DNA of 64,000 nt from positions 5,723,074 to 5,787,073 of the forward strand of contig JBJCIZ010000239.1 in the NCBI GenBank assembly GCA_051294375.1, read 5' to 3'. Below the pieces are notes generated by a model, which made no database searches, had not been told where the DNA came from, and worked only from the letters and a program-made list of their open reading frames with translations. Made by a program: the position numbers and the translations under genes. This document shows positions 9,229 to 63,168 of the stretch, one piece after another. How positions within the stretch are numbered: the first letter of the stretch is position 1; each line of letters starts with the position of its first letter. This stretch comes from Paraspadella gotoi. Lineage: Eukaryota; Animalia; Chaetognatha.

Positions 9229-18068
<8,840 letters not shown>

Positions 18069-19728
18069 CTTCCTCTGTTTTGTTTTGTTAGTTAGATTGG
18101 TTTTGTTTTGTATTTAAAGTATTATGTTAATGTTTATTTAATGTGGTTTGAATCTTCCGAGGCGGAATCTTTAAACAACATCGTCTATTTGTGAGATGTG
18201 TTTCCTTAATTTTTTATGTTTCGATTTTATGTTTCCTTGTTTTGGGGTCGTTTTGTGTTTTTTTTTTTTTAATTTTTCAGCCAGTGGTCATTTCCGGTTC
18301 GGTAGGGCGCTCCAGCGACTCCTCTCTCTGTCTTCCGCTCCTGTCTTTTTTGCTCCTGTCTTTAGCTCCAATCGACCGCAACCTTTTCTCTGATTTTTCT
18401 TCCGTTTGTGTCACAAACGACCACAACAACGACAACAACGACGACGACAAAATTCACACTTTGAGTGACTTTTTTGGTTTCGACTCGAAAGAGTCGCTTC
18501 GATTTTTAACGGAAATCCAAATCTGGAAATAAGAAAATGTGTACATATGTGTTATAATTATTTATTCTCAATTTCTCATTTATATTCACACTTCGGTAAA
18601 CAATAACTAGAATGAACAAAAAAGCGGTTTGCCCAAAGAGAAATCTTGGCAATGAATTCAGTGGCCAAGCAACTTCTAATTTTCTCTCTTGATATTAAGA
18701 TTAGAATATACGTACAATTAAACAATCGAAACATTCTTAGAAAGATTATACCACTTCATAGATAGGGAAGTGAATAAAAAAAAACTATAATAGAGTCTTA
18801 ATTGAAAGCTTACAGGGACCTGTTATGTTATTGTCGTGTGAGAGTGATAGGGGGCATAATTCAAGGCAAGATAGCTTATTTTTTAAATTAATGGATAATC
18901 TTTATATTAGTAATACCAATTTCATATCACTTTGGAGAGATCGGGTCTTTTTTTCCTCAGTTTAGTTGGAGGATGTAGTAGGCGTAATTAATGCAAATGA
19001 TACGATCACGCGAATCAGAAAATTAAACTGAATCAATTTTGTGTTATAGAATAAACGAATGATTCTAGTATTGGGTTTTAGCTGCAGGAAATAACTAAAA
19101 AAAAATATTTTTTATTAAAGAAATAAATCTTAAAACTGACAGAATCGTAAGATCGAAACAACAACAGCAGGTTAAAGAAAAACAACTATTTTTTTTCGAT
19201 TTGTTTTGATTTTAAATTTTATCAAAAATTCAAGATTCGAGTGTTTATTTTACCCTCGCGATGAAAAATTCGCGATAAGAAAGGAACTTTGATTTTATCG
19301 AGTCTTGTTTCAGTTTATTTGTACGAAAACGTTTAAAAAACAACAACAACAACAACAACAAAATCATAAACGTAGTAAAAATAACAAATCGGCAACTAAT
19401 GTCAGCGAGCGTTTATTGCTCGCTTATTCTCACTTTTCACTTAACGAGTCATGACTCAAAATTGAAAAAAAAATGTCGTCTTTTTTTTTCGTCGTTCCAA
19501 CGTTAAAAATTAAAATCTTTTAAAAAAATGTATTCATGATCAAGAAAATAATTATGAAAATCAAATCGGTCGCAACGTCGACTGTTCAAACTGGTTTTTG
19601 CGAGACCAATTTTTTTTTTCATCGAAATTCTGACCCAACGGTTTTTTTTTAGTTCTACCTTTAGTTTTCTCTTCTTTCATTTTTTATGTTCAGACATTTT
19701 TACAGTTTAAAAACACAGACAGAAAAGG

Positions 19729-23307: not shown

Positions 23308-23662
23308 ATGAAATTGGGTAACCAATATAAAAAATCCATTTTAATATAAAAAACTAACTTAAGTCGCCCCTGACTTTTGACAGACATCCTGCATTCATCC
23401 TTCTTACAAGATTATAAAATAAAATTATCATTTCATTCAATAAATCTTACAAGATTATAAAATAAAATTATCATTTCATTCAATAAATCAGCTTTATTGT
23501 CCAGACTTTGGCTATTGTGGTTTACGGCCTTCATTCCTCTTACATTATATGAAATTGGTACAACCAATATAAAAATTATCCATTCATTTAATAAATAAGC
23601 TATCTTGCCCTTGACTTTGGACAGGCTTTGGTGGTTTAAGGTCCTCCATCACTCTTACAAGA
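23308..23662. mobile_element. Family-E ~115-bp repeat, tandem and degenerate copies
   Basis: TATGAAATTGGTACAACC...GGACAGGCTTTGGTGGTTTAAGGCCTCCATCACTCTTACA. Other copies at ~27980-28071, 56463-56573, 56788-56898 and 58387-58500. Confidence 0.8.
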
Positions 23663-24415
23663 TATAGTAGACTTATTTTGAAACAAATATACATATAAAT
23701 ATAATACATATCGCATTGTCCCTTCCAAGTCCACTCCTGCGAATCTCTCAAACGATTTCCCAAAGTGAGTCAATGCTGCGAATTCCGCTGGAATTGTTCG
23801 CAGAAGATCGAGCCTCACTCATTCGGAAGGCAGGGTCTCTTTAACGGAGACCGCGTCGGGTTGGGAAGTGAGTTTCCTCTTGAAGGCAGCGGATGAAGAA
23901 AGTTTAAAGCGAAAGTTTGCTCAAGTGTATCGTAGTAGTTTGGTTGTGCCTCGGTTGTAATACGAGCAGAAAACTAGAAGTTGTATCTTTTGTCAAATTA
24001 ATCAATACGTGTTTTCTGCGGGGCAATTTTTCTCGAAACAAACGCCAAGAAACAAAAGATGTTTCTTTAGAAATCATTCGTGATTCATAAATATTTAATA
24101 ATTGATAAGACATTATTCAAGACGAATCCCAGGTACAAATAGTCACAAAACGGTACAAATTACATACTTACATACTTACATACTTACATTCGTACATACT
24201 TAGTTAAAGAAAAAAACGTGTTTATCTTTTAAAATGTAATTACGAAACAGAAATTACTACGAGTATCATTTGTTTGTTTTTTCTCTCAGCCACTCGCTAC
24301 CTCTGCGACTGCGACGCCCCTTTCGCCCGCTGCCTAAAACTGGCGAAAACAATAGAGACTCACGTTTTGGGTCACATTAACTTCAACGTTCAACGAAGGC
24401 GTTGTTTCAAAGAGG

Positions 24416-27810: not shown

Positions 27811-28135
27811 TTCTCAATTTTTTTCAATGAGGGTTAGGGACGAGGGTTTAAGGTTTCAAATTAGAGATAAAGTTTGAGGTTTAGGGTTTAAGATAAGGTT
27901 TTGGTTCAAGATTAGAATTAGGTATAAGCTTTAGGGGTTCGGTAAAAAGTTATGAGAATTTGTGAAATTGCTACGACCGATATAAAAATTATCCATTCAT
28001 TTAATAAATAAGCTAGCTTGCCCTTGGCTTTGGACAGGCTTTGGTGGTTTAAGGCCTTCATAACTCTTACAAGCTAATGACATAGAAGTCTCTGCAAGCT
28101 TTCAGTCGTTTTCAATCGTTTTAAATATTTAAGTT

Positions 28136-41514: not shown

Positions 41515-44500
41515 TCAAGTTCCATCCCGACGCCTCTCCACTTCCCCCACGACGGAGATCAACGCCTCCGGCTTCAGCCAATGACGGGATCGTCCCCCAA
41601 CGCTGCGCCGTCGTGCAGAGAAGCGTCAGGGAGGCGGCGCGGGCGTTCCTAACACCCACGCCTTCCAAGATGGCGTCCTTAGATAGAGGGCGGCGCCGCT
41701 GGTGGCGCTACAGTAGGTCGAGACCTCCCCGATCGATGGATAACGACAATCGAAAGTCGGTCTGAAAAAAAAACAAGTTTGAGCAAACAATGTCGAATCT
41801 GCCTACGATAATTTCGCGGTAATCAGTTAAACAGATGATAATCACGATAATTCTTTGTGATCTCTACAGATCATAACAGATCATAACAAAACAAATCATA
41901 ACAGACTTATTAATAAATCGATGAAAATATCTATCAATCAATTGAACAATAAGTAAAAGAACCTGTGGCTGCGCTTTTAGCGGATTAGACTGAACTTTTA
42001 CTGCAGCACAATTAATATTTTATAATTTAAAAAAATATTTTATCAATAAATATAATATTTTAAACATTTTGTTCATTATTTTTTCTTGCATAATTTTTTT
42101 TTAATTTACAAAATTTTTTTTAACTTGCATTATTTTTTCAACTTATTCAGCCAATCCATCATTTTATCTCAGTGAGAGAGAGAAACATTAAAATTTTAAA
42201 AAAATTCAAGTAAAAGTAATGTTTGCTTTTTTCAATTTAAACTCATTTCCAATGGCACGATTCCATCAAAACTTCAGTTCAATCAGTTCAATCACCTACT
42301 TTCCCACACGCACACTAAATTTAATCTCTATCCATTTATCTAATTATGAGTAATTAGAGTAATTATGAAGTAATATAAGCAAAAAGATTTAAGTAAACCT
42401 GACTTATGATTTTTTCCATTTAAACTCATTTCCACTAGTACGATTCCATCAAAACTTTATATCCAGCTCAATCACACAGGTTCCTACCCAACCACAAAAT
42501 TTCATTCCAATCCAACCATCCAATCACAAGTAATTGGAGTTATTTGCTAGGGTGGGACAGACGGACTGAAGAGAAAAGGCCGGGACCGACGGAGATGGCC
42601 AGATTTGACCCGTTCGACCGATTGACCGATCGACCGGACCGGGACTGACCTGACTCTCTCTCCTCTCTCCCTTTCCCTCTCTCTCTTTTTTTCTATCTCT
42701 CTCCAAACCTTACCTGGACAGACTTTGACAAAACCAAGATCTGTGGATAAGGCGCTACGTGGGCTGAAGAAGACTATCCGTAACTTCTATAACCCCCTCT
42801 AGCAGCCATGGAACGGGTCCCTGGGCTTGGAACCAGGCTTGAGGGTTTGCCATGCCCCCAAGGCGGCTTACGGCCGTCCTCACGCTTCCCGCAGGGTAGG
42901 TACCGGGTTGGGATTGAACCTGGTACCTAGTGGTCATGAGCTGATGGCTGATTCTAGGCGGGGTGAACCTAGGCAATGCCCGACTACAGATCAGATTCAC
43001 TGGATCACTCTCTAGAACGCAAACTACTTTCTTACAAAGTTTTCTACTACGTTGTTACTGAAGATTCCTGATTCCTGATTTCTCTACGACATTTGATTCC
43101 TCTTTGATTGATCTCAATTTTTTCTACGGATTTCGTCTCGTCTTTTACAATTTATTATTTACATTTCGAGCTTCAGTTACATAAAACGTTTTGGGATTCT
43201 TTTCGTCAAGACTAAGTTGCGGCCAAGTGGACCATTCTCACCTCAAGAGGCGCAGAGAGTCAAGCTTCTCTACACGGACGGACATCTTTTTTTTTTTTTT
43301 TGCATAATTTATCATAATTCGATATTCTGACAAGAAATAAATTAATGACCGACAATATTGAGGATGTGGACCGACGGACCGACAAAGTGGATTATAGAGC
43401 CGACTAAAAAAATAAAATCAATTAAAGTTAAATACCTACTTCCATTGTTGATACAATTGGATCAAAAAATAAAATAACACAATCTTAAAAGTATAATAGT
43501 AGTTAAACAACATCATTGCAACTTTCAAAAATAGGAAGATCATGAAATCTATGTACCAGATACACAAACGAATGGAACAAAACAACTTTTTTGCTCAAAT
43601 TTTAAATCTTTTTGATTAATAGAATTAAAGTCAAAACAAAGGAGAACTTTATATTAGTCAGTCTCTGTCAGTCGTAGAGAATTGTTTTAACACCAGTAAA
43701 TATTGTTATCGATATATGGCATCTATCATATATCATCAATTCATCATTATGATAAAGATCACACACTTTACACTCTTGCTTTTTATGTCCCCAGACGTCT
43801 AAAAAACTAAAACCTTATTAAAAAAAAAAAAAACAACACAATTTTTTTCCCCTTTTCAACCTGGATAAGGTAAATACGGCCTCGTTGCTTGGCAACACCA
43901 TCGCGGCGTCCTCCAATCGCGGCCCGAGATTCGGCAACGGACGCAGTGACACGAGATCCACGTCGCAAGGAAACGGCGTCGCGCGTTTCACCGTCAACGC
44001 CGCCGGCGTCTTAGTATCGGCCTGGTCAGGGATTATTAGGTTATTAGGGTTATGGTTTTAAATCCAAAATTGAGAATTAGGGTTTGGATCATAAAGTAGG
44101 TGAGGGTTAGAATAGATATAGATTAGGATTTAAAAAAATAGGGTTAAATCTAAGGGATTATGGTCCAGAAAAGGGCGCTTTTTTTTAAAAAAAAAAGAGA
44201 GAGCCGCAAATAGAACGTACGAACATTTTCTTTTGATTGATTGACTTAATTGATTGATTGTTTTATTGATTTGGTTATTTTACTGATTCGATTTGATCAG
44301 ATTTATTTACTGATTCGATTTGATCAGATTTATTTACTGATTAGAATCTATCAGATTTATTTACTGATTCAATTTTATCAGGTTTTGTTACTGATTTGAT
44401 TTGATCAGATTTATTTACTGATTCGATTCGATGAGATTTATTTACTGATTCGATTCGATGAGATTTATTTAGTGATTCCATTCGATGAGATTTATTTACT

Positions 44501-45647
44501 GATTCGATTTGATCAGATTTATTTACTGATTCGATTCCATCAGATTTATTTACTGATTCAAATTGATCAGATTTATTTATCGATGGATCGACATCAAAAC
44601 AGCTTCCTGTTCACCGCGCGTTTTGCAGTAAAGAAAACTTCCACGGGCGAATTGAGGCGTCGACGGAGTTGATGAGCGCCGACAGAAAGGAGCGGAATCG
44701 CTGGAGCCTTTGTCTCATCCCTTCCGCGCTCCTCCAAGGACAAGTCGTACCGAAGAGTCGAGAGAACATTGTCCTCGACGCCCTCTCCCATCCCGCGGGA
44801 GTCGTCGTTATGCAGGCGCCGATCCTGCATCACCTCCAGGCTGCCGTTGTGCTGCGACGAGGCGCCCTGAGGCTGCGCGGACAGCAGCGTCAAGCGTCTT
44901 CTGCCGCGGGCGCTGATTTGATCTTCAATGAACGCCGCCGATGACATCGGGTAAAAGTTGGCCTGGATGGAAAGCCACAGACCGAAGTTGAAATTATAAA
45001 AAGACCGTTTCATCCAATGTGTTGCGCCGCAGTGACTTTATTTTTATGTGTATTTCTTGTGAAAAGACATGACATGACGTGACATGACATGACTACAATA
45101 ACTTTTTTTGCCTGTGTTTTTATGACACGCACTGCATCAGAATTTCATTTTTTATTTGTTATAGTTTTAGGATTAGGCGTTTAATGCTAAGGGGGAATGG
45201 ACAGACGGACGGACGGCTGGACGGGCGGACTGATGGAAGGACGGACAAGACTTCATTTTTTTGCAGTATTTATCATAATTCGAGTTATTGATATGATAAA
45301 AATGATTTACCGACAAGATTTTTGGGTGGGACCTAGACGAACCCGACAAAGTGAATTATAGAGTCGGAATCTGCTGATAAGCAGATCCGACTAAAAATTT
45401 TTTAAAAAAAAAAAAAAACGTTTTCACTTCTCCCAACGCACAATTTACTGACCTGAATCGGGAGTTTGGCCAATCGTCGTCGCCTCATCATCGCCAGGAC
45501 CTTGGCGTCAGTGAAAAAGTGGGAGCCAGAGTCGATATCTGTATCGATGCGCATCACGGGCTCGAGATTGGTGAATCTCTGTATGAAGTTAAAGTCTTTA
45601 ACTCCAATATAATAAATAATAATAATTAATAATAATAATATAATAAT

Positions 45648-45683
<36 letters not shown>

Positions 45684-47283
45684 AAATAATAATAATAATA
45701 ATAATAATATTATAATAATAATATAATAATAATATTTATATAAATATTAATTTAATTTTATAATATAATATAATAATATTAATATATATATAATAATAAT
45801 AATAATTTTTATAAATTATATTAATGTACCCAAATATACTAATTTACTACTAGCTGCTATTTTTTTTTAATAAGATTAGTTTGTTTTTTATTAAAAATAT
45901 GTCTAGGGTTTAAATTAATTTAATGTCAATGTTATACAAAGTTTTATATTTTAAAAAAGATTTATAGTTTAAAAATTTATTCCTTAAAATATTCAATTTT
46001 TTTAATTTAAGAATTAAATTTAATTTAATTTATTATCAATTTGTTTGAATTTATTGTAAATAATGTTTCTCTTCTTAATTTTAGCAAATTAGATCATAAA
46101 ATTGTCTGCTATATTTCTGTTTTAAAGCTATTTTCGTTAATTAAAAATTGCCTACTTTTATTCAGTTAACTACTAGGTAAACAAACAAAAAATTGTCTAT
46201 TACCTATAAGAAAATATCTTTACCTAAGTTCTATCTTCCAACCTCTTTCTTTTGTTATCATTCTATCCAACCATCCTTCTCTCCCACTATCTTTTTATCC
46301 TTCAACCCTAACAAACCCTTTGAGCAAAACGCGGTTGGTGATGCGAAGGGATCGACGCAACACAGAGTCTTCGCAGGATTGAGGCGATAAAGAGGACAGC
46401 TCGCCGTCCACCCTCCGCCCTCCCACCATTTCTACAAAGTGCTCGATCATGGGAAACACGACTCTGACCGTCGTCACCAATGGACCCGCAATGATCACGG
46501 CCATCAGCGGTGAAGAACTTTTATTTGCAAGGCCCGAAGGTTGGAATAGATACGCGCCGCCTCTGACTGACGGATACCACAAAAACCTATAAGAGATAAA
46601 CTTCTCAACTTTTGTCTGTCTGTCTGTTTGTCCGTCCGTCCGTCCGTCCGTCCCACCTTAGCAAAAAACACCAATTAATTGTGATTGGATCGATGGATTA
46701 GAATTAGATTTTGTGTGTGGGTAGGGAAGTGTGTGATTGATCCGGATATGAAGTTTCGATGGAATCGTGCGAGTGGAAATGAGTTTAAATGGGAAAAACA
46801 AAAAAATATATTTCACTATTTGAATGCCAATTACTCGTGAGTGGATGCGGCGATTGACTTGATATTTTGTATATGGGTAGGAGAGTGTGTGATTAAGCTG
46901 AAAATCAATTTTTGATGGAATCGTCTGAGTGGAAATGAGTTTAAATGGAAAAAGCAAAAAACCTGTTTCACTAATTAATTATGCCTTTTTTCCTTTTATA
47001 ATAAGTGTAAATGCAAGATGTATTAATTAATCAAATATTAGTCAGTTTATTAATCAATTAGTCAATTAATTAATCAATAATTTATTAATCAGTCAATTAA
47101 TCAATCAGTTAATTATTCAATCAATCAATTTATTTATATATTAATTAATTATTCAATCAATCAATTTATTTATTAATTAATTAATTATTTAATCAATCAA
47201 TCAAGTCAATCGTTATCGGCATTATTGTCATCGTCGCCATCATCGTTGCTTTTGTCGGGTCAAGAGCGTTTATATTGTTTGGT

Positions 47284-47333
<50 letters not shown>

Positions 47334-50300
47334 AAACGAAATAAAAACATGATGTTGCGATTGCAAAATGATAACATGCACAAATGCGATGCCTAATTTT
47401 ACGAGTTGCAAAATGATGCAAAATGATGCAAGTTGAAAAAATGAAGCGAATTGTAAAAATAATGCAAATTTAAAAAATTATGTGAGTTGAAAAAATGATG
47501 TGTGGAAAAAATGATGCGAGTTGAAAAATTCATGCGAGTTGAAAAAATGATGCGAGTTAAAAAAATTTTTACAAAAATTGTGATTTATCATCTGATTAGC
47601 TGATTACCGCTTAATTATCGTAGGCAGATCCGACATTGTTTGCTCAAACTTGTTATAAAAATTTTATTAAGTTTTAGATTTAAAAAAAAAAAAATTCAAA
47701 TCATTTTAGTTACGTTATGGGATTGTTCGTGTAGTCTTCTAGAAATAGAAGGAGCATCTTTATAGGTTGTTTATGCTCATTGTATATCTGTAGTATATAA
47801 ATTAACATTCTGTTACTGCAATTTACGATCTCTTTCAGTAGTAATTAATATTTTGTATTCGTCAAGTAGGTATATTAATTAGTTCAGCTAAGTGTGCTAT
47901 TATTCAGGAACCCGGGATTACTCCCTCTTACAAACCCTATTTGCGCCACGAGATTCGACCGTCCCTCCGACGTCGCTACGATCATTCGTCTCAACAGCCC
48001 CCGGGGCCAGTCGAATTCGGCCGCTAGACAACCGTTGGTCAGCGTGATGCGGCTTCTGACGGGCCAACGGTTCAGGGATATGGGAAACTCGGTTGATTTA
48101 TTTGTGAGTTTTTCGTGGCCGACATCGTTTAAAACGGTAAGAGCAGCTAAGTGAAACTTGGAAACGTTCTCTCTCGATGAGGACGTGATAATGGAATGAA
48201 TGTACAGCCTCTTTATTTCAAAAGGTTCCATCTCTGCTTCGAAGACCAACTCATAGAGACCCGCCTGAGGTTTCCCTAGATTTGACCAGACCGGGTCGAT
48301 CTGGTGGCGCAAGATCTTCGCCGTCGTCTTAACTTCGACGTCAAACCGATTGATCCGCAGTCGAATTATCTCCCGTCGTGCAAAGGGAAGCGCGTTGGCC
48401 AATATGATAACAGTAATAGAGGGAGCCAAGCCTCGGATGTCCACGATGACGGGTTCCACTCCCACCGACTTTTGATTGGCCAAAAGGGTCACTCGAAGCG
48501 GCTCATCAACATCGCCTCCTTCCCGAAAAGTCCTTGATTCCATAAGCGACCAAACGGCCCCCACCAGCGCCCTCTGCGCCTTGACGAAACCTTCACAAAG
48601 GCGTCGCGCAATGTCGGCGGCATTGTGTTCCTTGGAAGTGCCGGTAACATCGTCGTGGTGTTGGAAAAGGGCGAGCTCTTGATGGGCGGAGCGGAGATCT
48701 TGAAATTCGCGGACCTGTGGTCGGGTAATGCAGCCAGTTCACCCCGCCCTTAAGCATGACACCTTCGGTTATGACCCCGATTGTTTATTGAGTAAATCTC
48801 ATAAGGTACCGGCATCGATACCCAAAGGTAACTAACTACCCAATGGGAAGCGTGAGGACACCCGGAATCCAACCAAGCCTGGTTCCAAGCCCAGGATATA
48901 TGTTCCTTTACTGGTGACTGGTGAGGGTCGTTAAGCGAGTTAAGGATGATTTATCCATGTGTGGCAGCAAGACTTAAAGCTGCCTCACTGCTGTCCGTCC
49001 TCAGCCTCGTCTCAATGGCTGAGCAGGCTAAATCATCTCATTCCATCCGTGCATCCCGGGTTCAATCCCTGGGTATCCCGGTTCTGGCTTAAATGTGACG
49101 GTGCCGGTATAAACATGCCAGTGACAGGAGGCGGTCACTGAGGGTCCGCAGCCCCTACGCCAGTTGGTGAGATACCCCGCGCCCCGGGTATCACAGGCTA
49201 TCCTCCCGTTGCCATACATGTACCTTTTTGTCACGGCGTGAGGGAGGACCGTCGCGGGCGCCGGCAGCGAGAGTGAAGAATACATCGGCTGCGCGGAGGA
49301 GGGACTCGAGGCGGCGGCCGAGGACTTTCCAAGCCATTCGGGAAGTGAAGTAGCTGCGGAAGAAGAATGGCCTTTTTTTTTTTTACAAAAATGCCTCATT
49401 TCGTCTTTAATTTAGATTTAGTTCTTCAGCATTAACCTTAAAAGGCTAAGGATTTAATTAAAGATTTGGTTAGGGATAGGTTAAGAGTAGGGGGAAGTGA
49501 AAGTTTAGTTTAGTTTAGCAGTTATATCTTGAAAACTATCCTATTGGTGAATACTAATCTGTAATTATTTTTTTTTTTACAAATATGGTAGCCTGGTCAG
49601 CTTATTTTATATATAGTATATTATTACCCTTATATAATATTAAAATTTCAAAATAGTTTATTTTTAAATTCTAAGAACAGATTCAGATTCCTTGTTAAAA
49701 GTTGATAAAGGAAAATATAAATCTTTTTCAAAAATTATGTCATTAAAAAGGTTAAAATTACAAAAAACTATATTTTGAAACTAAAAATTGAAAATCGGAG
49801 TCTTAAATATAGTTTTTTACATTTTTGACCAACTTAATGAAAAATTTTTTAAAAAAGAATTATACTTTCTTTTATCAACTTTTTGCAAGAAATCCAAATC
49901 CGATCTTAAATTTAAAAAAATTGTATTTTAAAATTTTAGCTTATTATACAGGGTTCGGACTTAAAACTTACCCCCATAAGAAAAATTATTATTTACTTTA
50001 ATTATTTGTACTTAATGATATATCTGAAAAATTTAGTTTTATCAATTATTTGATTGGTCATTTTAGTACATGTTTACCTTATGTCAGCTACTCGTTTATG
50101 AAGTATACCTTACTTAGGACCCTTCCAAAGATGAGTAGACGATATGAAAAATTCTTTACATTTTTGCTACCATTGTATATTCAATAATGGGTCAAGATTG
50201 ATGTAATTCCGGTTACAAGTACTGTTGAGTGTTACATTTAATTCGCCCCATACTGCAATACCCAAATGATTTTAGATTTTGCATTATATGGGGCATAATG

Positions 50301-53300
50301 CCCTGAGGCCAAAATTTAGAGAAATTATATTAAAAAAAATCTTACTTTATACTAGTAGCTGAGCATATTATATTGTATAAATAATATAGATATACCTCAA
50401 ATTACTGCAGCATACTGCAGCTTTAATTTTCTTTTAAGAAATAAAATTATAAAGTACTAACTGATTTATATTGTGTGCTATACAGTTTTGGCTTATGCTA
50501 ATAATTTGATTTTTTGGTTGAGAATTCCTTTTAAGGTATTTTAATAGCGCACAAGGTACAAATTTTTTATCTCATTAACTACAAAAGTTAGATGAAAGTT
50601 ATCATTACAACTTTTTGACATTTTAATAATTTATCTATGATAATTAACAAAAACTATAAAATTTAATGAATGATGATGATGATGATTTTTTAAGGGTTTT
50701 TCAAATTTTAGCCCATTTATCATTACATTTTTTTAAATTTGTAGTAATAACCTTTATCTAACTTTTTAATCTTTATCAGAATTCATTTAAAAAAATTTAA
50801 ATTTCCTAAAAAATTTTTTAAGCATTTCTTATATATTGTTAAATATTAATATGCTTCCATGAGGAAAATTAATTTAATCAAAATTTAACATCATAAGTCA
50901 ATTTGGTTGTAAAAAGACAAAATACTTTTATCGCAGACTTTTTCATATTGTAAAAAAATGTTAAATTCTGGCCCGCCTTACTACTTACCCACTCCAATAA
51001 TCGTCGTCGAAATCACTGTATGTGAAGAAATCTCCGCCAAATATCTTCAGCTGAGAAACCTCCCCCAAGTCCTCGTCAGCCATTTGAAAGTATTCCGACA
51101 GTGTCCCGAACTTAGCCGTCGCGCCCATTTCCTCAGAGCGGGCATTGATATAATTGAAGATCTTGTTCCAGTTTTCAAACTGCCGATCAAACTGAGATGA
51201 TTGAATGAAGCGAAAATCATCGCCAAATATCACCAGCACAACATTGTGCTTAAACCACAGCGACTTTTTTCTAAGTTGATCAAGCAGCTTGATTGCCTGA
51301 TCATGAATGTTTACAGGCCCAATGGTTGGTGCTGAATTTGGTCTCCAAAAATCATATTCTACGCAAATCCAATAGTAAGGGCCGCAAGAATGTTTGATGG
51401 TGTAGGTATAGAGAGGGTTCAATGAAACCCGAAGATCGTCAATGCCCTCAACATCCCACTCTTGGCGCCAAACAAACTCAGCGTCTGCATTTTTATCCAA
51501 AAACTCTTTTATCTTGTAGTGGATTCGATTTATGAAGGAACGCTTGAGACCAGCTAATGATCTAATCCTAGCCGCTGTCGCTGAATGACCAAAAGGGTCA
51601 ATGTTAAAGCTCGTCTTTGGCGCAAATCCCAATTTTTGTCTGAGAAAAAGATGGCCTTCCAGCATCTGGTCAATGAGCGAGTAGACTGTGGGGTTAGCTT
51701 CGTCCGGCATTACCCAACCTCCACCAACGATCTCAAATCGGCCCTCCTTTATTGGCATGATTTTTTTTAAAAGCGCCCCCCTGTTTGTTCCATAATCTTT
51801 AAATCTATATTTAATCCTAATATCTAACCCTAATATTTAACTACCCCGTGTCCGTTCGAGAGTGACACCAAAAAAATCTTTACTATACTTTAAATATTTA
51901 GTAAACATAATTCATAAGTATATCATTAGTTGCAGAACTACTTGAAGTTTGTTATGTATAAGTTTCATTTCGTTTTTAATTTACTATTCTTTGTTTAATT
52001 TTTTATCTAACACAGTAAAATTAGCAAAAAAAGACAATTTTAGGCGTGTTCTTGATTGAATTTTAAAAATATTTTATATCATAAGAAATCCCTATTAATG
52101 GTCTAATCAATGAATTATCGTAATGTTGAGTAATTTTTCAGTAATGATTTTTCATTGATTTTTTTAATTGTTAATCTTAAGTTTTCTTTATACAATTCGT
52201 CCAATTAGAAAAAAATGCTATCCTGACCATGTTCTTGACTGTTTTGAATAATTATTTTATATTGTAAGGATTCCCAGATAATTATTAATTTAATGGCGTA
52301 AATGAATTTTAATAATTTTAAGTATTTAATGAATAATAAATTTATAATGATTTTCTTTTTTTAAAAGATTCAGTTCTTTACTGAAGATGAAATTGGATGA
52401 CCATATTTAAGGAAATATCAAATTAATCTTATGAAATTAAAATATAATAAACGTCAAGTACTTTGCTACAGAATGAAGAAAAAAAATTTAAAAAATATTT
52501 ATCCAATGAGAAATGGTACGCATTTTTTTGGTGTCACTCGCGAACCCTACCCTGAATCCCTCAACCTGTACAGTAGGGTGGATTGATGAAAAGATTGAGT
52601 GATTGAACATTATTTTTTTGCTGCCTATGGACATGTAAATAATAAATTTTAAATCATTTTAAAAACAATTTTAACATAACATATAGTAAATTCAATTATT
52701 TATGTAGTAATATCCTTATAAAATCGTTAAATTTTAAAATTTTTATTTTTATTTTTAAGAACAGATTTGGATTCGCCGTAAAAAACTAAGAAACTTTTAT
52801 AAAATATGTCATATGATATTTTAATGTTTGGATCACAAAAAATGACTAAAACATTTTAACATATATAAGTTTCTACAACAAAGAATAAAAAAGTCATAAA
52901 TTTTAACCTTTTTTCCGGTTTTAAACGCTGATGATGACAGAATTTTTGATAAGATGTTTTATATTTTTGATTCAACTTTTCATAAAGAATCTGAATCTTT
53001 ATAAAAAGTTTTTAAAAATTTTTTTTAAAAATTTATTATTTTATAAGAATATTACTACAAATTTATTATATTTTACTATTCTGTTCCCGAGACAATATGA
53101 ATAAAATATTTTTTGTACTAGTTAATCATAATATCTCACATCTAAATATCCTTGTTCGATCATTCAAATAAATTTTTTTGTTCTTGAGTGTTCCACTCTA
53201 CTATACAGAACCCTAATCCCTAATATAGTCCCCAGCAAATTCCTAACTTTAAACCCTATCCATAATTTTTAACCTTATCGCCTAACTTAACTTTAGACAT

Positions 53301-53873
53301 AACAAGTTTGAGCAAACAATGTTGGATCTGCCTACGATAATTAGGCGGTAATAAGCTAATCCGATGATAAATCACGGTAATATTTTCTGACTTTCATAAC
53401 AAATTGTAACATAACAAATTATAACAGACTTCTTAATAAATCTATAAATCAATTGACCTATCAATCATTACCATTAGCTGCGCCAATACCAACTTGCATA
53501 ATTTAGTCAAATTGCATAATTTGGTAATTTTGCATAATTTTGTCAATTTGCATAATTTGGTCAGATTGAATAATTGCATAATTTAATTAAGTTGCATTAT
53601 TTGGTAAACTGGTATAATTTGGTAAACTGGCATAATTTGGTCAACTGGCATAATTTGGTCAACTGACATAATTTGGTCAACTGGCATAATTTGGTCAACT
53701 GGCATAATTTGCTCAACTGGTATAATTTGGTCAACTGGCATAATTTGCTCAACTGGCAAAATTTTGTCAACCGGCATAATTTGCTCAGCTGGCATAATTT
53801 GCTCAACTGGCATAATTTGGTCAACTTGCAGAATTTGGTCATTTGAATAATTTTGTCAACTTCCATAATTTGG

Positions 53874-53906
<33 letters not shown>

Positions 53907-56900
53907 CAGAGAGAGATAGAGAGAGGGAAACTTTTAAAAATTAAAATAAATGTGTCTTTTAGTTTTCTAATTTAAACTCTTTTCCACTTTCATTTCCTTT
54001 TATCTATCAAATTTTTAATGAATTTAATAATTATGAGTAAATATAAGTAAAAATACTTCAAGTAAATATAACTTTTGTTTTTTTCATTTAAACTCGCGCG
54101 ATTTCTTCGAAACTTTATATCCACCTCAATCATACACTTTCCTACCCACACAGAAAATTTCATTCCAATCCAATCCAATCACGAGTAATTAAAGTTTAAT
54201 GAAAAGTTGGGACGGACCGACAGACAATGTTCTGATATGATAAAAATTATTTACCGACAAGATTTTGGGGTGGGACCGACGGACCGACAAAGTGAATTAT
54301 ACAGTAAGGCGTAGTAAAATTTCTAAATTTAACTTTAATTAAAATTTTAAAAGTGAGGAACGAACAACATTATACTAATGAACATTTATGTATAAAAAAA
54401 ATTTTAATAAATTTTACAATTTACGCAGTAGGCTATATTTATACTAGTACTAATGCAATAAATGTTAAAATTTTAAAACAGTTTTTTCTCAGATTTTTTT
54501 GCAGATTTGTATTCGTCATAAAAAGTTGATAAAAAGAAATATAACTCTTTCTGAAAAATTGGAAAAACCTATATTTTAAGCTGAAAATTCAAATTTTATA
54601 TATTAATATTTAATTTTTAACCAACTTAATGAAAGAATTTTTAAAAATGATTTATATTTTCTTTTCTCAACTTTTGACGAGGAATTCAAATCTGCAATCA
54701 AAATTAAGAAAAGCCTATTTTGAAATTTTTCGAATATATAAAAATACTATTCTAAGTTTTGATTCACTATCCTGTAGAGTCGAGATCTGCTGATAAGCAG
54801 ATCCGACTAAAAACTAAATCAACCTAAAATTTAGGCTGAAATGGGGCGCTTTCGGAAAATATGATCCCTTGATTAAAGTTTTCATCATGTCGCGCATCGT
54901 CGTGTTTGCAATATCCCACCACCAGGAAAGGTAAATCGACTCGGCCCAGATGAAAGTCAATTTTTTATATTGATGGAGTTTGACAACCGCGTTGGTGATG
55001 ACGTGAAACGAGTCCTCGAAAGCAGGGGGCGTGTAAAGAAATGGCGACTCCTTCCCTCCCCACCACAAATGATTTGGTGGGCTGCCTTTAAAAGGCAAAG
55101 TGATATCAAGACCCCTCTATTAGCAAAGAAAATTGCTATAGAATAGATCAAGTAATTATAGACTTAAAATTAACATTATTTGAGTCGGTATTTTGCTTTC
55201 CCATGGAATCGCGATTTTAAAATTATCAAATAATTTTTTTTTTTATGTAGACTGATAAAAATTATCTCTCTCTTAACGGCCTCTTCTTTTTGGTTTTTCT
55301 TTGTTTGCGCTATACATTGGAACCATGAAAACAAAAAAAGTTGACCGGAATATGACTCACAAGAGCGATCAAATGATAACTAAAAAATTATAGGAACTTT
55401 TCAGATAAAATCGATTTTAATCATATATTTTAGATAATTATAGTATAAATTTTTAAATAGTATAATAGTTTTTATCATTATTAATATTTATTTCAATAAT
55501 ATTATTAATAATAACATTATTATTATACTGATTGAATTTAATTAAACTTGCTTATTAACCTATTTATTCGTAAATTTTTTTGTTATTTGGCTTAACCTTA
55601 ACCCTATCTCATATTAAATGTGGCCAGTCAGTTTAGCCTTTTTAACTTAAAAAAGTTTTATTAAACAAACTTTTATAATATTTAATATAAGAGGCTAATA
55701 AGTAATAATTCATTCCAATCCATCCATCCAATCACGAGTAATTGGAGTTTTTTTTTCTAAAGTGGGACGGATGGACGAACGGACGGACAGACAGACGGAC
55801 GGACATCGTTCTTTTGTATAATTTATCATAATTCGATGTTCTGACATGATTTAAGTGAATGCCCAACAAGATTGAGGGGGCGGACCGATGGACCGACAAA
55901 GTGAATTATAAGCAGATCCGACTAAAATATTGCTTATATTGAACGGTTCTGTCACTAACACATAACAATAATTACTGTCTCTTCATTGGTGAGCCCGACT
56001 TCCGAACAGAACAGCAACAACAACACTTTCAGGCGACATGCCTCAACCTGGCGATGCACTTTCCGCCAACAACAATTCACAGAAGAGACGCAACAGACTT
56101 CTTCCTACAGGAGGGGGGGATGTATGGAGGACTAAAATCCACCAACCGTTCATCAGCGGCCATTGGTGCCGGAGCCAAGTCATTCGCCTCCCAACCCAAA
56201 GGTCCGGGGTTCTAGCCCAGTGGTTGCCTAGCAGTTAAGAGGGACGGGGCGCTTAACCCGTCTGTAACACGTTACAGCCTGATCCGAAGCTCAGGGACTG
56301 CTTATATTGAACGGTTTTGTCACTAACACATAACAATAATTACTGTCCAATGTACTGTCCAATGTATAGAGCAAACAAAAAAAAAATTAGAAGAGGTTGT
56401 TAAGAGAGAACTAATGTGGTTATTGATTTTTGGTAGATCTATTGATTATCGCAGGATAACAGTATGAAATTGGTACAACCAAAATAAAAATTATCTATTC
56501 ATTTAATAAATAAGCTATCTTGTCCCTGACTTTGGACAGGCTTTGGTAGTTTAAGGCCTCCATCACTCTTACAAGATAATGACTTGGCAGGTCCTTGCAA
56601 GCTTTCAATCAAGACTCTCTCACAGTCTCGTTTATTCACTCCCAAAGTACCTGGCTTCCCTATCAATGAAGTGGTATAATATTTCAAAGAATGTTTCAAT
56701 TGTATGAAAAGACCACTCTCTCAAGTATTAGATCGGGGAATACTTATTGTACTCCGCACTAGCATCAAAATACAAGGAGCTGAATTTTATGATATTGGTA
56801 CAACCATTATAAAAAATATCCATTTATTTAATAAATAAGCTATCTTGCCCTTGATTTTGGGCAGGCTTTGGTGGTTTAAGGCCTCCATCACTCTTACAAG

Positions 56901-57475
56901 ATGAGATTTTTTTGTGGAGGTTCTCAACCCCTCTACACGCCCTGCGTCAGACCCTCTACACGCCCCTGCCTCGAAAAAGTGTTCCGCGGCCGTCTTGTGC
57001 CATCCCGGGTCCGTGTGTGAAAAAGGCACGAGAACGATACGCAACGGGTCATCCCGCCGTCGCGAATCGCTGTAGTTCATGTCAACTTTGTCCCAGTCTT
57101 TATCTCCGCCCCCGCGTCCAGGCATTCGAAGTGACTCGTAAAGTCGAAGGCTTGAAATGTCGACGGAGGCTTTGCGTAGATCGTTGGAGCATTTCATCGA
57201 TTCCTCCTAGACCATTGAGGAAATTTATTTGAAGCAAATAGACCGGGCATTGTAAACTACTCTTTACTGTATATGCTAAATTGAGGTCCCCTTTAGGCTT
57301 TACTCTTAGTTACCCGTTTGGCGACCTTGGTTAAACTGGAATATCCGTCATTGGCCAGAGGAAAATTCCATAAGCAATACCAGTAGACTAGGAGGAACAG
57401 TAGGAAGGTGAGAAGCACCCAGCGATAGTAAATCTTGATTCGGAGGAGCATTAAAACGAATCTTGAGCGAATCAT
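41515..57475 (-). CDS. MAN2A: Golgi alpha-mannosidase II (GH38, MAN2A-like); exons 57475-57314, 57206-56970, 55014-54868, 51746-50989, 49353-49224, 48714-47936, 46586-46317, 45576-45453, 44962-44615, 44021-43861, 41761-~41515
   Basis: N-terminal type II anchor. Motifs VPFSHTDPGW, FIWAE, EIVGGGWVMPDEA, IDPFGHS, RIHY, GDDFR, YWSGYFTSR, LFQHHDDVTGT, GAYLF, QANFYPM, DRRLHNDDSRGMGEGV. The last exon has apparent indels. The symbol is family-level. Confidence 0.92.
42742..42988. mobile_element. Family-B solo-LTR-like element, intact, TSD GATC
   Basis: GATC|TGTGGATAAGG...CCCGACTACA|GATC, 247 bp. The reverse strand carries GGTTCAATCCC and GGTTCCAAGCCC T-arm-like hairpins. Confidence 0.88.
44280..44580. 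repeat. Minisatellite, ~27-bp unit
   Basis: TTTACTGATTCGATTTGATCAGATTTA repeated. Confidence 0.9.
45010..45396 (+). mobile_element. DINE-1/HINE-like Helentron-associated repeat
   Basis: GGAC/AGAC microsatellite, core TTTATCATAATTCG...GACAAAGTGAATTATAG, and 3' hairpin AGTCGGAATCTGC-TGATAA-GCAGATCCGACT plus an A run. Further copies at ~42240-42570, 43270-43410, 46615-46970, 54030-54300, 55710-55925 and 60590-60950. Confidence 0.65.
46588..47932 (-). mobile_element. TG...TA element (TGTAAGAG/CTCTTATA), TSD GGTT, coextensive with intron 46587-47935
   Basis: Minus strand: ATA G GGTT TGTAAGAG ... CTCTTATA GGTT TTTG TGG. Confidence 0.75.
48716..49220 (-). mobile_element. Family-B-related LTR-like element filling intron 48715-49223, with family A nested at 48960-49216 (TSD CATG)
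   Basis: Ends CCCGACCACA|GGTC on the minus strand. Shares GGAAGCGTGAGGACA and CAAGCCTGGTTCCAAGCCCAGGA with 42742-42988. Confidence 0.82.
51843..52554. mobile_element. Nested MITE
   Basis: GTTCGAGAGTGACACCAAAAAAAT ... ATTTTTTTGGTGTCACTCGCGAAC inverted repeats around an AT-rich interior. Confidence 0.7.
52569..53205. mobile_element. Nested Tc1/mariner-like MITE
   Basis: TA-CAGTAGGGTGGA ... TCCACTCTACTA-TA. Confidence 0.5.
53490..53878. repeat. Minisatellite, 18-bp unit
   Basis: CATAATTTGGTCAACTGG, about 20 copies. Confidence 0.92.
55022..56969. mobile_element. TIR element (GCAGGGG(G)CGTGTA.AG) with perfect 7-bp TSD TTTCGAG, coextensive with intron 55015-56969
   Basis: Minus strand: TTTCGAG|GCAGGGGCGTGTAGAG ... 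CTTTACACGCCCCCTGC TTTCGAG|GAC. Confidence 0.85.
56123..56347 (-). mobile_element. Family-C element (tRNA-like cassette on + strand, ~56156-56227); partial second copy at 55931-55986
   Basis: Reverse complement of 25034-25267. Confidence 0.85.
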
Positions 57476-59770
57476 CGCAACGGAGACGAATAGTTTATTT
57501 GGTAGCGGAAGTGGTTAAGTTTATAAAAAGGAAATCGATTGTTTTAAAGATTTAAAAAAAAACTTTACAGGAGTTTTCTACGTCCATTTTATTCGAGAGA
57601 GATATTGATATTGAAAAACGAAAGTGCAAGCTTTGGGCTAGGACTTAAAAATGCCCTAAAAAGCTACCTTATCTTATCATTTGTAATTATTGACGGTTTT
57701 CTTGAGTTTTAATAATTGGTACTGAACAACTGAACGATTCTAATTTTCTAGTGGACAATAGGCATGGGCTCTTTCTAACTTACAATTTAAGCAGACTTTT
57801 TTGTTGGAAATCCGATGCCACCCCAACAAGCGTTCTATAAAAACTATTAATCGCAATGTTTTTTTAAGATACTATCAAATAATGAGTTAGTTTTTATAAT
57901 TTGTTTTTTTCTTTGTACCGATATATTTTGTATGTATTCGGTAAGTGGGATCATGCCGGCAGCATCCAAGGCAATATTTTAATCTATATGAATTATTGAA
58001 TATCTATCGAGTAGGAAACTTATGAAAGACTTTAATTGCTCGTAATTGTAATTTATAAAATTTTCCCAGTGATAAGAACCAGCAGATAAAAAACATGGTG
58101 ATGAATACAAAACCAATGAAACAACAAGTGATGAAAATAGTTGATGAACTAATTTAAAATTATATCCTGTAATATAAAGAGAAATTATATTAATTGCTAA
58201 TATTTTCGACTTTGCTTTAAAAAATAAGTCATTGATATGGGTTGTCCATGTAAGTTTCTGGTCAATTGTACATTAAAGCGTAGCAAAAATATTAAAATCA
58301 AGTAGAATCAAAATCAAAATCAAAATCTTTTTTTTAAATAAAAAAAATAATTTTTTGTCATTTTTCGCTTACGCCCATATTTATACATGAAATTGGTACA
58401 ACCAATATATAAATTATCCATTCATTTAATAAATAAGCTATTTTGTCCGTGACTTTGGACAGACAGGCTTTGGTGGTTTAAGGCCTCCATCACTTTTACA
58501 TAACATTACTCTTAATGATTGAATTTTTTAGGTTTCTTTACTGCCCCCATTACTCAAGGCATAAAAGGTCATTATTATCATGTCACTACGTACAGATTAT
58601 CTCTACCCTTTATGCCACCTGCATTCTGAATTTTCTTTGTTTCCCTTTCAAATGTATTAAATAAAAAAAAATATTTGAGAGAACGATCAGCATGTTTTAT
58701 TCGACAGTTTATGAAATACAGCTAGCAGTGTAAATAATTTCATTTAACCAGTGAAATTTTTTTTTATTAAAAAAAAACCAAAATTTTAATTTTAATGTTT
58801 TTCATCGGAAAAAAACTTATGTGCAGTTAAATGACTTGAAAGATTTTCGCGTCATGTATTCCAAAAGCCATCAGTTTGAGTTTATACTTTATCGTACAAA
58901 ATTTTAGCTTTGTTAAAATTATTGGGCGGCCTCCTGTTGACAGACGTTTCGAAGTGTCAATACTGTGAGGTAGTTACTTAATTGGAAGAGAACAACATGC
59001 ATTCTCTCTTTCCCTCTCTCTCTCTCTCTCTCCCTCCCTTTTCTTAGTTTCTATAATCTCCTTTTTTGGTTACGTTTCTCTTCACTAACAATAAAAAACA
59101 TATTTTTTAGAATTTCAATCAGGAAGTGAATTTCTTTTCCGTTTATATTATTATGTTTATAACATCAGACAGCGGCTCCTTCTCGGTTATCTTTATTACT
59201 TTCTCGTTTGCGGAGAAAAAAATAAAATTTTGAGTAAATATAGGAGAGAAAAAAAGAGAGAAAAAGAATATGATATCAAGGTTAACATAGTTTTGTAGCA
59301 TAAAACAAAACTTTGTCGAATATTTATAGACCTTTAAAATACCTGGTATTCACTAAAATCTGTAACTATATAAAAAAAAGAAAGAATAAAAAGAAAAGAA
59401 AAAAAAGAAAGAAAATTTGGCCCAAAAAAAATCAAGGAAAAAGCACGTTCTCCGCAGAGGAATAAGGAGGAGTAAAAACTATTGCAATTCCATTGGGAGA
59501 AGGAAGAGGAAGAAGATAAAGAATCTAGAATGAAAAAAAAAAAAAGAGGCAACTAATTTGGGCGAAAGGGAGAAAGGGGGAGAGAGATGGAGAAATAGAG
59601 AGTGTACGAGGGAAAAGAGGAAAATTTAAGAAGAAAGACAATGAGAAGAGAGGAAAAAAAACATTAAGGGGAGAGCAGAGAGAGAGAGAAAAGAGAAAGA
59701 CAGACAGACAGACAATCAGAGAGAGAGAGAGAGGGGGAGGAAGGAGAAAGAAAGAGAGAGAGAGAAAAAG

Positions 59771-62033: not shown

Positions 62034-63168
62034 TTAATTAATTAAGGGCAAATATTCATGCTTGTCCATGGGCCTCATGTAGTCCTTTCCCAGCAACACC
62101 TGCAACATCTCGACAATCTTCTCGTCCTCGCACGGCACGTGCACCAGGAAACCGTGGAGATCGGACGAGCAGACCCGGACGGTAAAGTCGTAGGACAGGA
62201 CGCCTGTACTTTGCGAGACCGTGCCATGGGGTCGCCCCGAGGCCACGAGCCAAACGTCGGTGGACACGTTCGCGATTCTGTATCTGTAGAAAAATCCGTT
62301 GTTCCCGTATTCGGGGAGATTCGGGTCTTTTTCTTCGACGCTGTAGTCTCTGGCTTTGACATCGGATCGTGAGGCCCCTAAGCGGATCATCTCTGGAAAA
62401 CTGGGTTGAGAAAGAAAATAGGCCTTGTTTTGCCAAAGCACCCCCCGTTTCGTCTTAAATACGAAATTAAGCCAGTTTCAAGGTTTAAGGATTAAGGTAA
62501 AAGTTAGGGTTAGAGATCAGGTCGGGGATTAGGTTAAGGATTAGGGTTGGGAGTTAGGGTCAAATAATAAGTTAGGTTTTGGGATTAAGGCTGGGGATTA
62601 GGGTTAGGGATTGGGTTATTGATTAAGGCTGGGGATTAGGGTTAGGGATTGGGTTATGGATTAAGGCTGGGGATTGGATTATGGATTAAGGCTTGGATTA
62701 GGTTTAGAGATTGGGTTATGGATTAAGGCTGGGTAGGGATTAGGTTATGGTAAAGGATGGGGATTAGGGTTAGAGATTGGGTTATGGATTAAGGCTGGGG
62801 ATTAGGGATTAGGTTATGGATTAAGGCTGGGATTAGGGTTTGGATTGGGTTATGGATTAAGGCTGGGGATTAGGGTTAGGGATTGGGTTTTGGGTTCAAT
62901 AAAACTTTCAGGTTAAACGTTAAAATAAAAATCAAATAAAGAGATGATGTCACAGATGATGCTACAGTTAGACAAAGCTATCTCACTCACTCTTATATTC
63001 TCTCTCTCGCTCTCTCTATCTATCCTCCACTCCCCCTTGCACTCCTCTTACTCACGCTTCGACTCGACTGTATCCAAAAAAGTCCACATCGCTATCTTCG
63101 GGCAAAATGCTGCACTGACGCCACCAACCGAGCAGAGTCCCGCTGCGGAGGAAAGGACGAATACGAAC
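62034..63168 (-). CDS. Fukutin-like / LicD-family phosphotransferase, last two exons (63168-63056, 62400-62034); 5' exons lie in the terminal gap
   Basis: PFLRSGTLLGWWRQCSILPEDSDVD matches the LicD/fukutin GT.LGW.R...IP..DxD motif. VCSSDLHGFLVHVPCE...LLGKDYMRP matches the fukutin C-terminus. The intron is phase-2 GT-AG. Confidence 0.8.
62480..62897. repeat. Interstitial degenerate TTAGGG-like array inside a MITE
   Basis: GGATTAGGGTTAGGGATTGGGTTATGGATTAAGGCTGG units following a GGCC...CCCCCCGTTTC TIR-like end. Confidence 0.7.

Follow-up and report, generated by a model that had tools for sequence, protein, structure and literature searches.

A likely hAT-like transposon insert that appears to be spliced out as a GC-AG intron in a Golgi alpha-mannosidase II gene

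Can a DNA transposon that lands in the coding sequence of a catalytic domain be removed from the transcript exactly, as an intron, so that the protein stays the same? The question arises from a gene for Golgi alpha-mannosidase II (GH38) on the minus strand at approximately 43850-57475 of the 64-kb stretch of DNA that was analysed, here called the window, where an insert with inverted ends separates exon A, which ends at 56970, from exon B, which starts at 55014 (Table 1). We are fairly confident that this insert is a DNA transposon, both old and non-autonomous and probably hAT-like, which landed in an exon and is likely excised exactly as a GC-AG intron. The window is animal-like, with AT-rich introns, microsatellites and one FERM-domain gene.

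The interrupted mannosidase gene

Exon C matches the mannosidase structure 1hty in the PDB with an E-value of 7.5e-58, and the nearest database proteins to the gene product share 40-46% identity with it. As predicted from the sequence, the gene holds pieces of the GH38 N-terminal, middle and C-terminal domains, an N-terminal anchor and the catalytic motifs. Six exons joined together give 737 codons free of stops, in which the HTDPGW, IDPFGH, GDDF and QHHD motifs, which we take to have catalytic roles, are all kept. Three of the six coding differences among the samples were synonymous, as counted among 40 of the 292 differences.

The spacing of conserved motifs fits an exact removal of the insert. 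With intron 1 excised precisely, the distance from DPGW to the FxWxE-type motif is 30 residues, as in 102 of 111 homologs bearing DPGW, and the joined peptide thus keeps the spacing proposed in the original prediction; the distance is 29 residues in three of the others, and six were unmatched. These counts were made on 120 homologs, nine of which were left out for the want of DPGW. The distance from DPGW to GGWVM, which spans both intron 1 and intron 2, is 67 residues, again as in most homologs (107 of 111; 66 residues in three and 83 in one). The junction letters are as first quoted, with GC at 56969-56968 and GAG at 55017-55015 on the minus strand. Thirty other pairs of GT-AG sites would keep intron 1 in frame, and the smallest addition among them is 11 residues.

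Table 1. Features of the mannosidase gene and of the intron 1 insert, in window positions
Feature	Positions	Strand	Basis and remarks
Exon 1	57314..57475	-	Predicted start codon; predicted type II membrane anchor; covered by X9 contig 30 according to depth
Intron 0, GT-AG, 107 nt	57207..57313	-	Predicted from depth arithmetic
Exon A, bears HTDPGW metal-binding motif	56970..57206	-	Upstream TSD copy forms its last 7 nt; X9 contig 30
Intron 1 insert, 1,955 nt, GC donor, GAG acceptor	55015..56969	-	Junction letters; precise join predicted
Upstream 8-bp direct repeat copy	56969..56976	.	7 exonic nt and first intron base G
Donor-side TIR, starts CAG, hAT/Tip100-like	56953..56968	-	Sequence comparison
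Subterminal second TIR copy	~56924..56942	-	Repeat family D9, 89%
Nested high-copy repeat, two related copies	56463..56902	.	56463-56703 and 56784-56902; twister-like motif in each, transcribed strand
Inner inverted repeat	55261..56415	.	Arms 55261-55321 and 56358-56415, 82%; encloses dispersed repeats 55709-56347
Acceptor-side TIR	55023..55039	+	Most of the pyrimidine tract (16/20) on the transcribed strand
Downstream 8-bp direct repeat copy	55014..55021	.	Gives AG acceptor and first exon base
Exon B, GH38 N-terminal domain piece	54868..55014	-	PF01074, E 2e-05, slightly under curated cut-off
Intron 2, 3,121 nt, read as GG..AG	51747..54867	-	Joint 51745>54867 in X9, depth 353.5; 0 in three DNA runs
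Exon C, catalytic core (IDPFGH, GDDF)	50989..51746	-	1hty match, X9 joints
Exon after GT-AG intron 3	49224..49353	-	X9 joints
Exon D (Alpha-mann_mid), after GT-AG intron 4	47936..48714	-	X9 joints, domain match
Later exons, same gene; GH38C match 44594-45037	43850..46590	-	Predicted boundaries

Removal of the insert from the transcript

The stretch is present in nine sequencing runs, of which four were examined: X9, which is RNA-like, and the DNA runs X1, X5 and X8. No run is recorded as RNA, and the status of X9 was inferred from its joints. Its contig 25 carries two GT-AG joints (48712>49222 and 49353>50989) in addition to that of intron 2, all of which have a depth of 0 in X1, X5 and X8. 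X9 behaves as RNA because its exon joints are absent from all three DNA runs.

A second contig of X9 bears on intron 1. Contig 30 (562 nt, depth 284.6) agrees with 56969-57205 without differences and ends at 56969, and therefore does not enter the TIR. It leaves 80 letters, and the segment from 55013 to 54934, the position at which contigs of the DNA runs X1 and X5 break, holds exactly 80 letters. From this arithmetic in a single run we infer that the X9 transcript joins exon A precisely to exon B; the joint of intron 1 itself lies outside the 15 of 726 joints that were read. A check on the depth in the bin 57109-57400 gave (97+88) x 284.6 / 292 = 180.3, the observed value being reproduced exactly with exon 1 joined. 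About 27,000 depth-letters of X9 in the bin of the intron 1 junction are not accounted for by the two contigs, and our guess is that they represent a shared unitig of 38 nt. The original prediction of a TIR element that makes up a GC-AG intron, with GAG as its acceptor, and is likely spliced out exactly is borne out in so far as contig 30 stops at the donor, and neither use of the downstream GT with its 11 added residues nor retained element sequence is seen in that contig.

We also considered whether the main transcript might use canonical GT/AG sites inside the element and keep residues encoded by the TIRs. Both TIRs are open in frame, the in-frame GT-AG options are numerous, and contigs drop rare forms, so that minor isoforms are possible. 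However, contig 30 stops at 56969 instead of running on into the TIR and the joint of intron 2 skips both of its TIR-like ends, which makes canonical splicing of the main transcript very improbable.

The main rival to precise splicing is that the insert is polymorphic, being either harmful or badly spliced, and that the donor of the RNA had an empty site, which would yield identical letters. X9 does come from a different individual than the DNA samples, with alleles of its own, and its depth of 1.06 in 55183-55503 may stem from related copies elsewhere. Yet the junctions between exon and element are crossed by DNA contigs in all three samples examined, both junctions in X1 and X5 and one in X8, and in X1 they are unbroken at a depth of 90-93 as compared to 98-107 in the exons, near that of a single copy. 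Moreover, X5 has the allele at 48329 in common with X9 and carries both insert junctions. The insertion also looks old, with diverged TIRs and nested repeats, and the reading frame is intact. We regard an empty site in X9 as improbable, and continue with precise splicing.

Ends of the insert and the class of the element

The inverted ends of the insert, as reported at the outset, match at 15 of 17 positions with one indel, a score that 13 of 200,000 pairs of positions drawn at random from the window also reached; the duplication of the TIR in a subterminal position was likewise recovered. The interior is a patchwork of repeats present elsewhere in the window. The inner inverted repeat and the repeats that it encloses are likely later nested insertions, to judge from their arrangement, and the insert looks old because its TIRs have diverged and repeats are nested inside it. 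No transposase was found among the listed ORFs of the insert, and neither terminus recurs in the 64-kb window. The depth in X1 at the acceptor-side end is 128 as compared to about 100, which is near single copy.

How often would such a structure be met by chance? A scan of the 64-kb window for a TIR with a 7-bp repeat found one, and ten local shuffles together gave four, which amounts to one such structure per two to three windows; a TIR with a 7-bp repeat is therefore not rare in itself. No other convincing 7-bp element of this type was found in the 64-kb window. For a TIR and repeat placed exactly at exon ends that are fixed by homology and RNA, the chance is about 6e-8, the product of about 1e-3 for the five free repeat bases and 6.5e-5 for the TIR.

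These numbers bear on another explanation, namely that an older, ordinary intron had its ends overwritten by a transposon or has TIR- and TSD-like ends by chance. The frequency of chance structures in the window speaks for it, whereas the coincidence of TIRs and repeat with both splice sites and the match of the terminus to a transposon-like family over 17 nt, described below, speak against it. A nematode homolog (P0001) has a 16-residue insert about three codons before the position of intron 2, a weak hint in the protein sequences that an older intron may have lain at a different position. On balance, an older intron seems quite improbable to us, and a transposon that became the intron is the origin that we favor.

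The target duplication can be read in three ways. The original prediction spoke of a perfect 7-bp TSD, but the eighth base also matches and the longest perfect direct repeat at the insert is 8 bp. Between this repeat and the acceptor-side TIR there is an offset of one base. The three readings that fit are a TSD of 7 bp with G..C ends, one of 8 bp with CAG..CTG ends plus an extra base, and one of 9 bp with a single mismatch in the intron, in which case both ends of the insert read CAG..CTG.

Related termini help to weigh these readings. Exact matches to the 17-nt terminus of the donor side were found at 106 metagenome loci, of which we kept the 23 with a GC content of up to 0.445; 19 of these form a MITE-like family at eight distinct sites on animal-like contigs. 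The 83 loci of higher GC content and four others (L040, L068, L097 and L105) were set aside as chance matches, and so were 15 matches to the terminus in viral contigs, three of them with a weak far inverted match, which had no target duplication. The family has CAG..CTG ends, and a G precedes the CAG at one of the eight sites. The other end was found at three sites (231, 905 and 1,112 nt), where 8 bp is the best-fitting repeat length (7/8, 6/8 and 5/8 matching, respectively), and was not found at the remaining five; none of the three complete elements has G..C flanks. The similarity between the family and the window is confined to the 17-nt terminus, and we therefore regard the family as a look-alike in another organism, not as copies from the host. 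One flank of a family locus has a weak GPCR match, and no transposase was found in 89 ORFs of eight related loci.

The first 8 of 11 bases of the donor-side TIR are equal to those of Tip100, a hAT element that makes 8-bp TSDs according to the accessible part of PMC12511174. Under the Repbase rule, a terminus is classified when its terminal 11 bases lie within one mismatch of a classified element; with three mismatches to Tip100, the sole classified terminus compared, the donor-side TIR exceeds this limit. Tip100-like hAT elements and the insert have in common a short TIR that starts with CAG, but the insert differs in being without a transposase and in its TSD, which can be read as 7 bp, as 8 bp with one extra base, or as 9 bp with a mismatch. 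The TIRs of 16-17 nt are within the 10-25 bp range given for hAT elements in the consulted passages of PMC3942097. The TSD of hAT elements is 8 bp, with 5, 6 and 7 bp in named subgroups, and families with 7 bp are described in the available parts of PMC4455052 and PMC12730594. A 7-bp TSD for the hATw subgroup found no confirmation in the literature searched, including the accessible text of PMC12905397, and no TSD length for hAT19 is given in the corresponding part of PMC9004415. The element in intron 1 is nevertheless a likely hAT, as far as its termini can tell. The initial exclusion of hAT by TSD length finds no support, given a repeat of 8 bp, relatives that best fit 8 bp and published 7-bp hATs.

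A tentative but credible alternative, which concerns the classification only and leaves the splicing as it is, has G..C ends and a 7-bp TSD, so that the whole GC donor lies in the TIR of an element that belongs to a 7-bp hAT subgroup or is unassigned. Its ends are symmetric, its 7-bp repeat is perfect and no later change is needed, while the 8-bp hAT model takes either one extra base next to the TIR on the acceptor side or a TSD of 9 bp in which one base has changed. Intron 2 likewise has G..C ends with a 6/7 repeat, and 7-bp hATs exist, as cited above. On the other side, the eighth base matches too, and the counts from the related family favor neither G..C flanks nor a G in front of CAG. The latter finding also weakens the original view that the TIR alone provides the GC donor. 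Judged by these letters, the G of the donor probably derives from the TSD.

In the mechanism that we propose, the target would have ended in AG followed by G, and the insertion would have duplicated it, so that the element came to lie between two copies. Together with the CAG of the TIR, the final G of the upstream copy would form a GC donor with an exonic AG, G at +1, A at +3 and G at +5, and the acceptor would be the AG of the downstream copy, with the pyrimidine tract supplied by the TIR. Splicing would then take out the element and exactly one copy of the target; the protein would therefore be unchanged and the insert could drift to high frequency. Further repeats may have accumulated inside it afterwards. 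The mechanism holds for all three TSD readings, which differ only in the origin of the donor G.

The neighbouring GG..AG intron and known transposon-derived introns

Intron 2 has TIR-like ends as well (54843-54867 and 51754-51779), matching at 20 of 25 positions, which 5 of 50,000 random pairs reach. They are flanked by a direct repeat of 6/7 (54868-54874 and 51747-51753) with the mismatch in the intronic copy, and the best-fitting TSD reading is 7 bp with G..C ends. Among the cuts that are possible for its joint, an AG end is obtained only with GG..AG. By eye, canonical GT-AG sites that would retain both TIR-like ends can be picked out, but the X9 contig does not use them. Intron 2 likely goes back to the insertion of a different TIR element by the same route, and likely uses GG as its donor. 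An exonic AG precedes this donor and A stands at +3, and the GG suggests that the spliceosome relies on the exonic AG and is permissive at +2. Of the five introns of the gene with RNA support, two look transposon-derived, with non-GT donors, and the other three are GT-AG without TIRs.

Introners are introns derived from TIR/TSD DNA transposons, with splice sites that come wholly or partly from the TSD, as described in the accessible parts of PMC9860276, PMC12130899 and PMC11282704. Those of Gozashti (2022, 2025), as far as the available sections go, resemble the insert in their TIRs and TSD at the intron ends, their TSD-derived splice sites and the unchanged mRNA length that is predicted for it. 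Unlike them, the present elements are single, old and 2-3 kb long, with nested repeats; two element types adjoin in one gene, one of the two has a GG donor, and no introner family is shown within a 64-kb window. Dataset file 8 of PMC12130899, in the part consulted, includes hAT introners in the tunicate Styela clava (fam1, approximately 1.6-2.6 kb, TSD 8, “co-opt both”) and in the clover Trifolium repens (fam4, gc 6/7). Introns that derive from hAT elements, with TSDs of 8 bp and with GC donors, have hence been catalogued before, and the insert in intron 1 would be a further case. Intron gain from transposons has rarely been documented in animals, in two groups according to the accessible part of PMC9860276 and in a few more according to that of PMC12130899, and our finding stands out because of the adjacent GG..AG intron.

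The closest parallel to the donor of intron 2 is in the copepod Eurytemora affinis, where introns with GA and GG donors have an exonic AG before the donor, A at +3 and lineage-specific positions (Robertson 2017, PMC5714493). The GG donors of this species thus have the same exonic AG and +3 A as intron 2, but no transposon origin is given for its GA/GG introns (PMC5714493), unlike the TIR-like ends seen here. The four Eurytemora introner families in Table 6 of Gozashti 2022 (PMC9860276) have GT donors and no GA or GG. No literature that ties GG-AG introns in an animal to transposons was found in the openly available papers searched. TIR/TSD introns with relaxed splice signals also occur as non-canonical introns derived from transposable elements in Fritillaria borealis and dinoflagellates, in the accessible text of PMC11282704. 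The present gene differs from these in that the G and the AG are kept, and in that GT-AG is found at the three remaining RNA-supported introns and at the junctions of the FERM-domain gene, which were read by eye.

One broader hypothesis, which we consider somewhat unlikely as it stands, is that the spliceosome of this lineage accepts almost any AG/G donor, and that, throughout the genome, ordinary TIR transposons inserted at AG-G targets turn into precise introns whose donors are GC and GG. If this were true, it would offer a transposon origin for the copepod-type GG and GA donors, which have hitherto been without a mechanism, and would mean that old, long elements are missed by similarity-based screens for introners. 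The origin of GG donors becomes testable by a survey of genome and RNA. That two neighbouring introns within a single catalytic domain are both likely derived from transposons, one of them with a GG donor, suggests that there are many more such introns in the genome, and that gene models relying on GT or GC donors may be wrong in it.

Exon A motif, a later intron and contig breaks in the mannosidase gene

The motif of exon A (57087-57060 region, minus strand) reads PFSHTDPGW, where the F position is occupied by H in all homologs with DPGW (111/111). Further along the gene, beyond the stretch that was compared with RNA, the intron at ~45580-46320 (minus strand), between two later mannosidase exons, has several candidate in-frame splice options; besides GT-AG, these include the use of GG as donor or of GAG as acceptor.

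At 54926-54963, both the DNA and the RNA contigs are interrupted at either side and the bin depth is raised, as if these 38 nt were held in common with a second locus, for example a paralog. No second copy of this stretch was found within the window.

Repeats in and around the introns

A candidate twister-P5-like motif lies within a very high-copy repeat (Table), with a score of 30.6 bits, below the gathering score of 37.6, and an E-value of 0.018 for the window. Intron 1 carries two such copies on the transcribed strand, one of them ~70 nt from the donor. The tandem array of intron 2 is akin to a stretch near 47411-47567. Separately, the 17-nt terminus (the donor-side TIR end of intron 1) occurs three times in L068 (12-120), inside a tandem repeat of 46 nt that lies where the contig ends; L068 is a metagenome locus set aside from the MITE-like family as a chance match.

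Table. Repeats, a further gene and an ORF in the window
Feature	Position	Strand
Twister-P5-like motif, candidate	56525-56567	-
Further twister-P5-like copy	56840-56902	
Further twister-P5-like copy	58438-58500	
Further twister-P5-like copy	28013-28081	
Further twister-P5-like copy	23600-23664	
Further twister-P5-like copy	23510-23544	
Tandem array, units ~18 nt, within intron 2	53490-53877	
Band 4.1/FERM-domain gene	~11700-18070	-
ORF, 147 codons, GC-richer	62034-62477	-

A further gene and an ORF in the window

The 147-codon ORF had no match in Pfam. Read by eye, the junctions of the FERM-domain gene are GT-AG; their donors are weak in the intronic bases and have a strong AG on the exon side.
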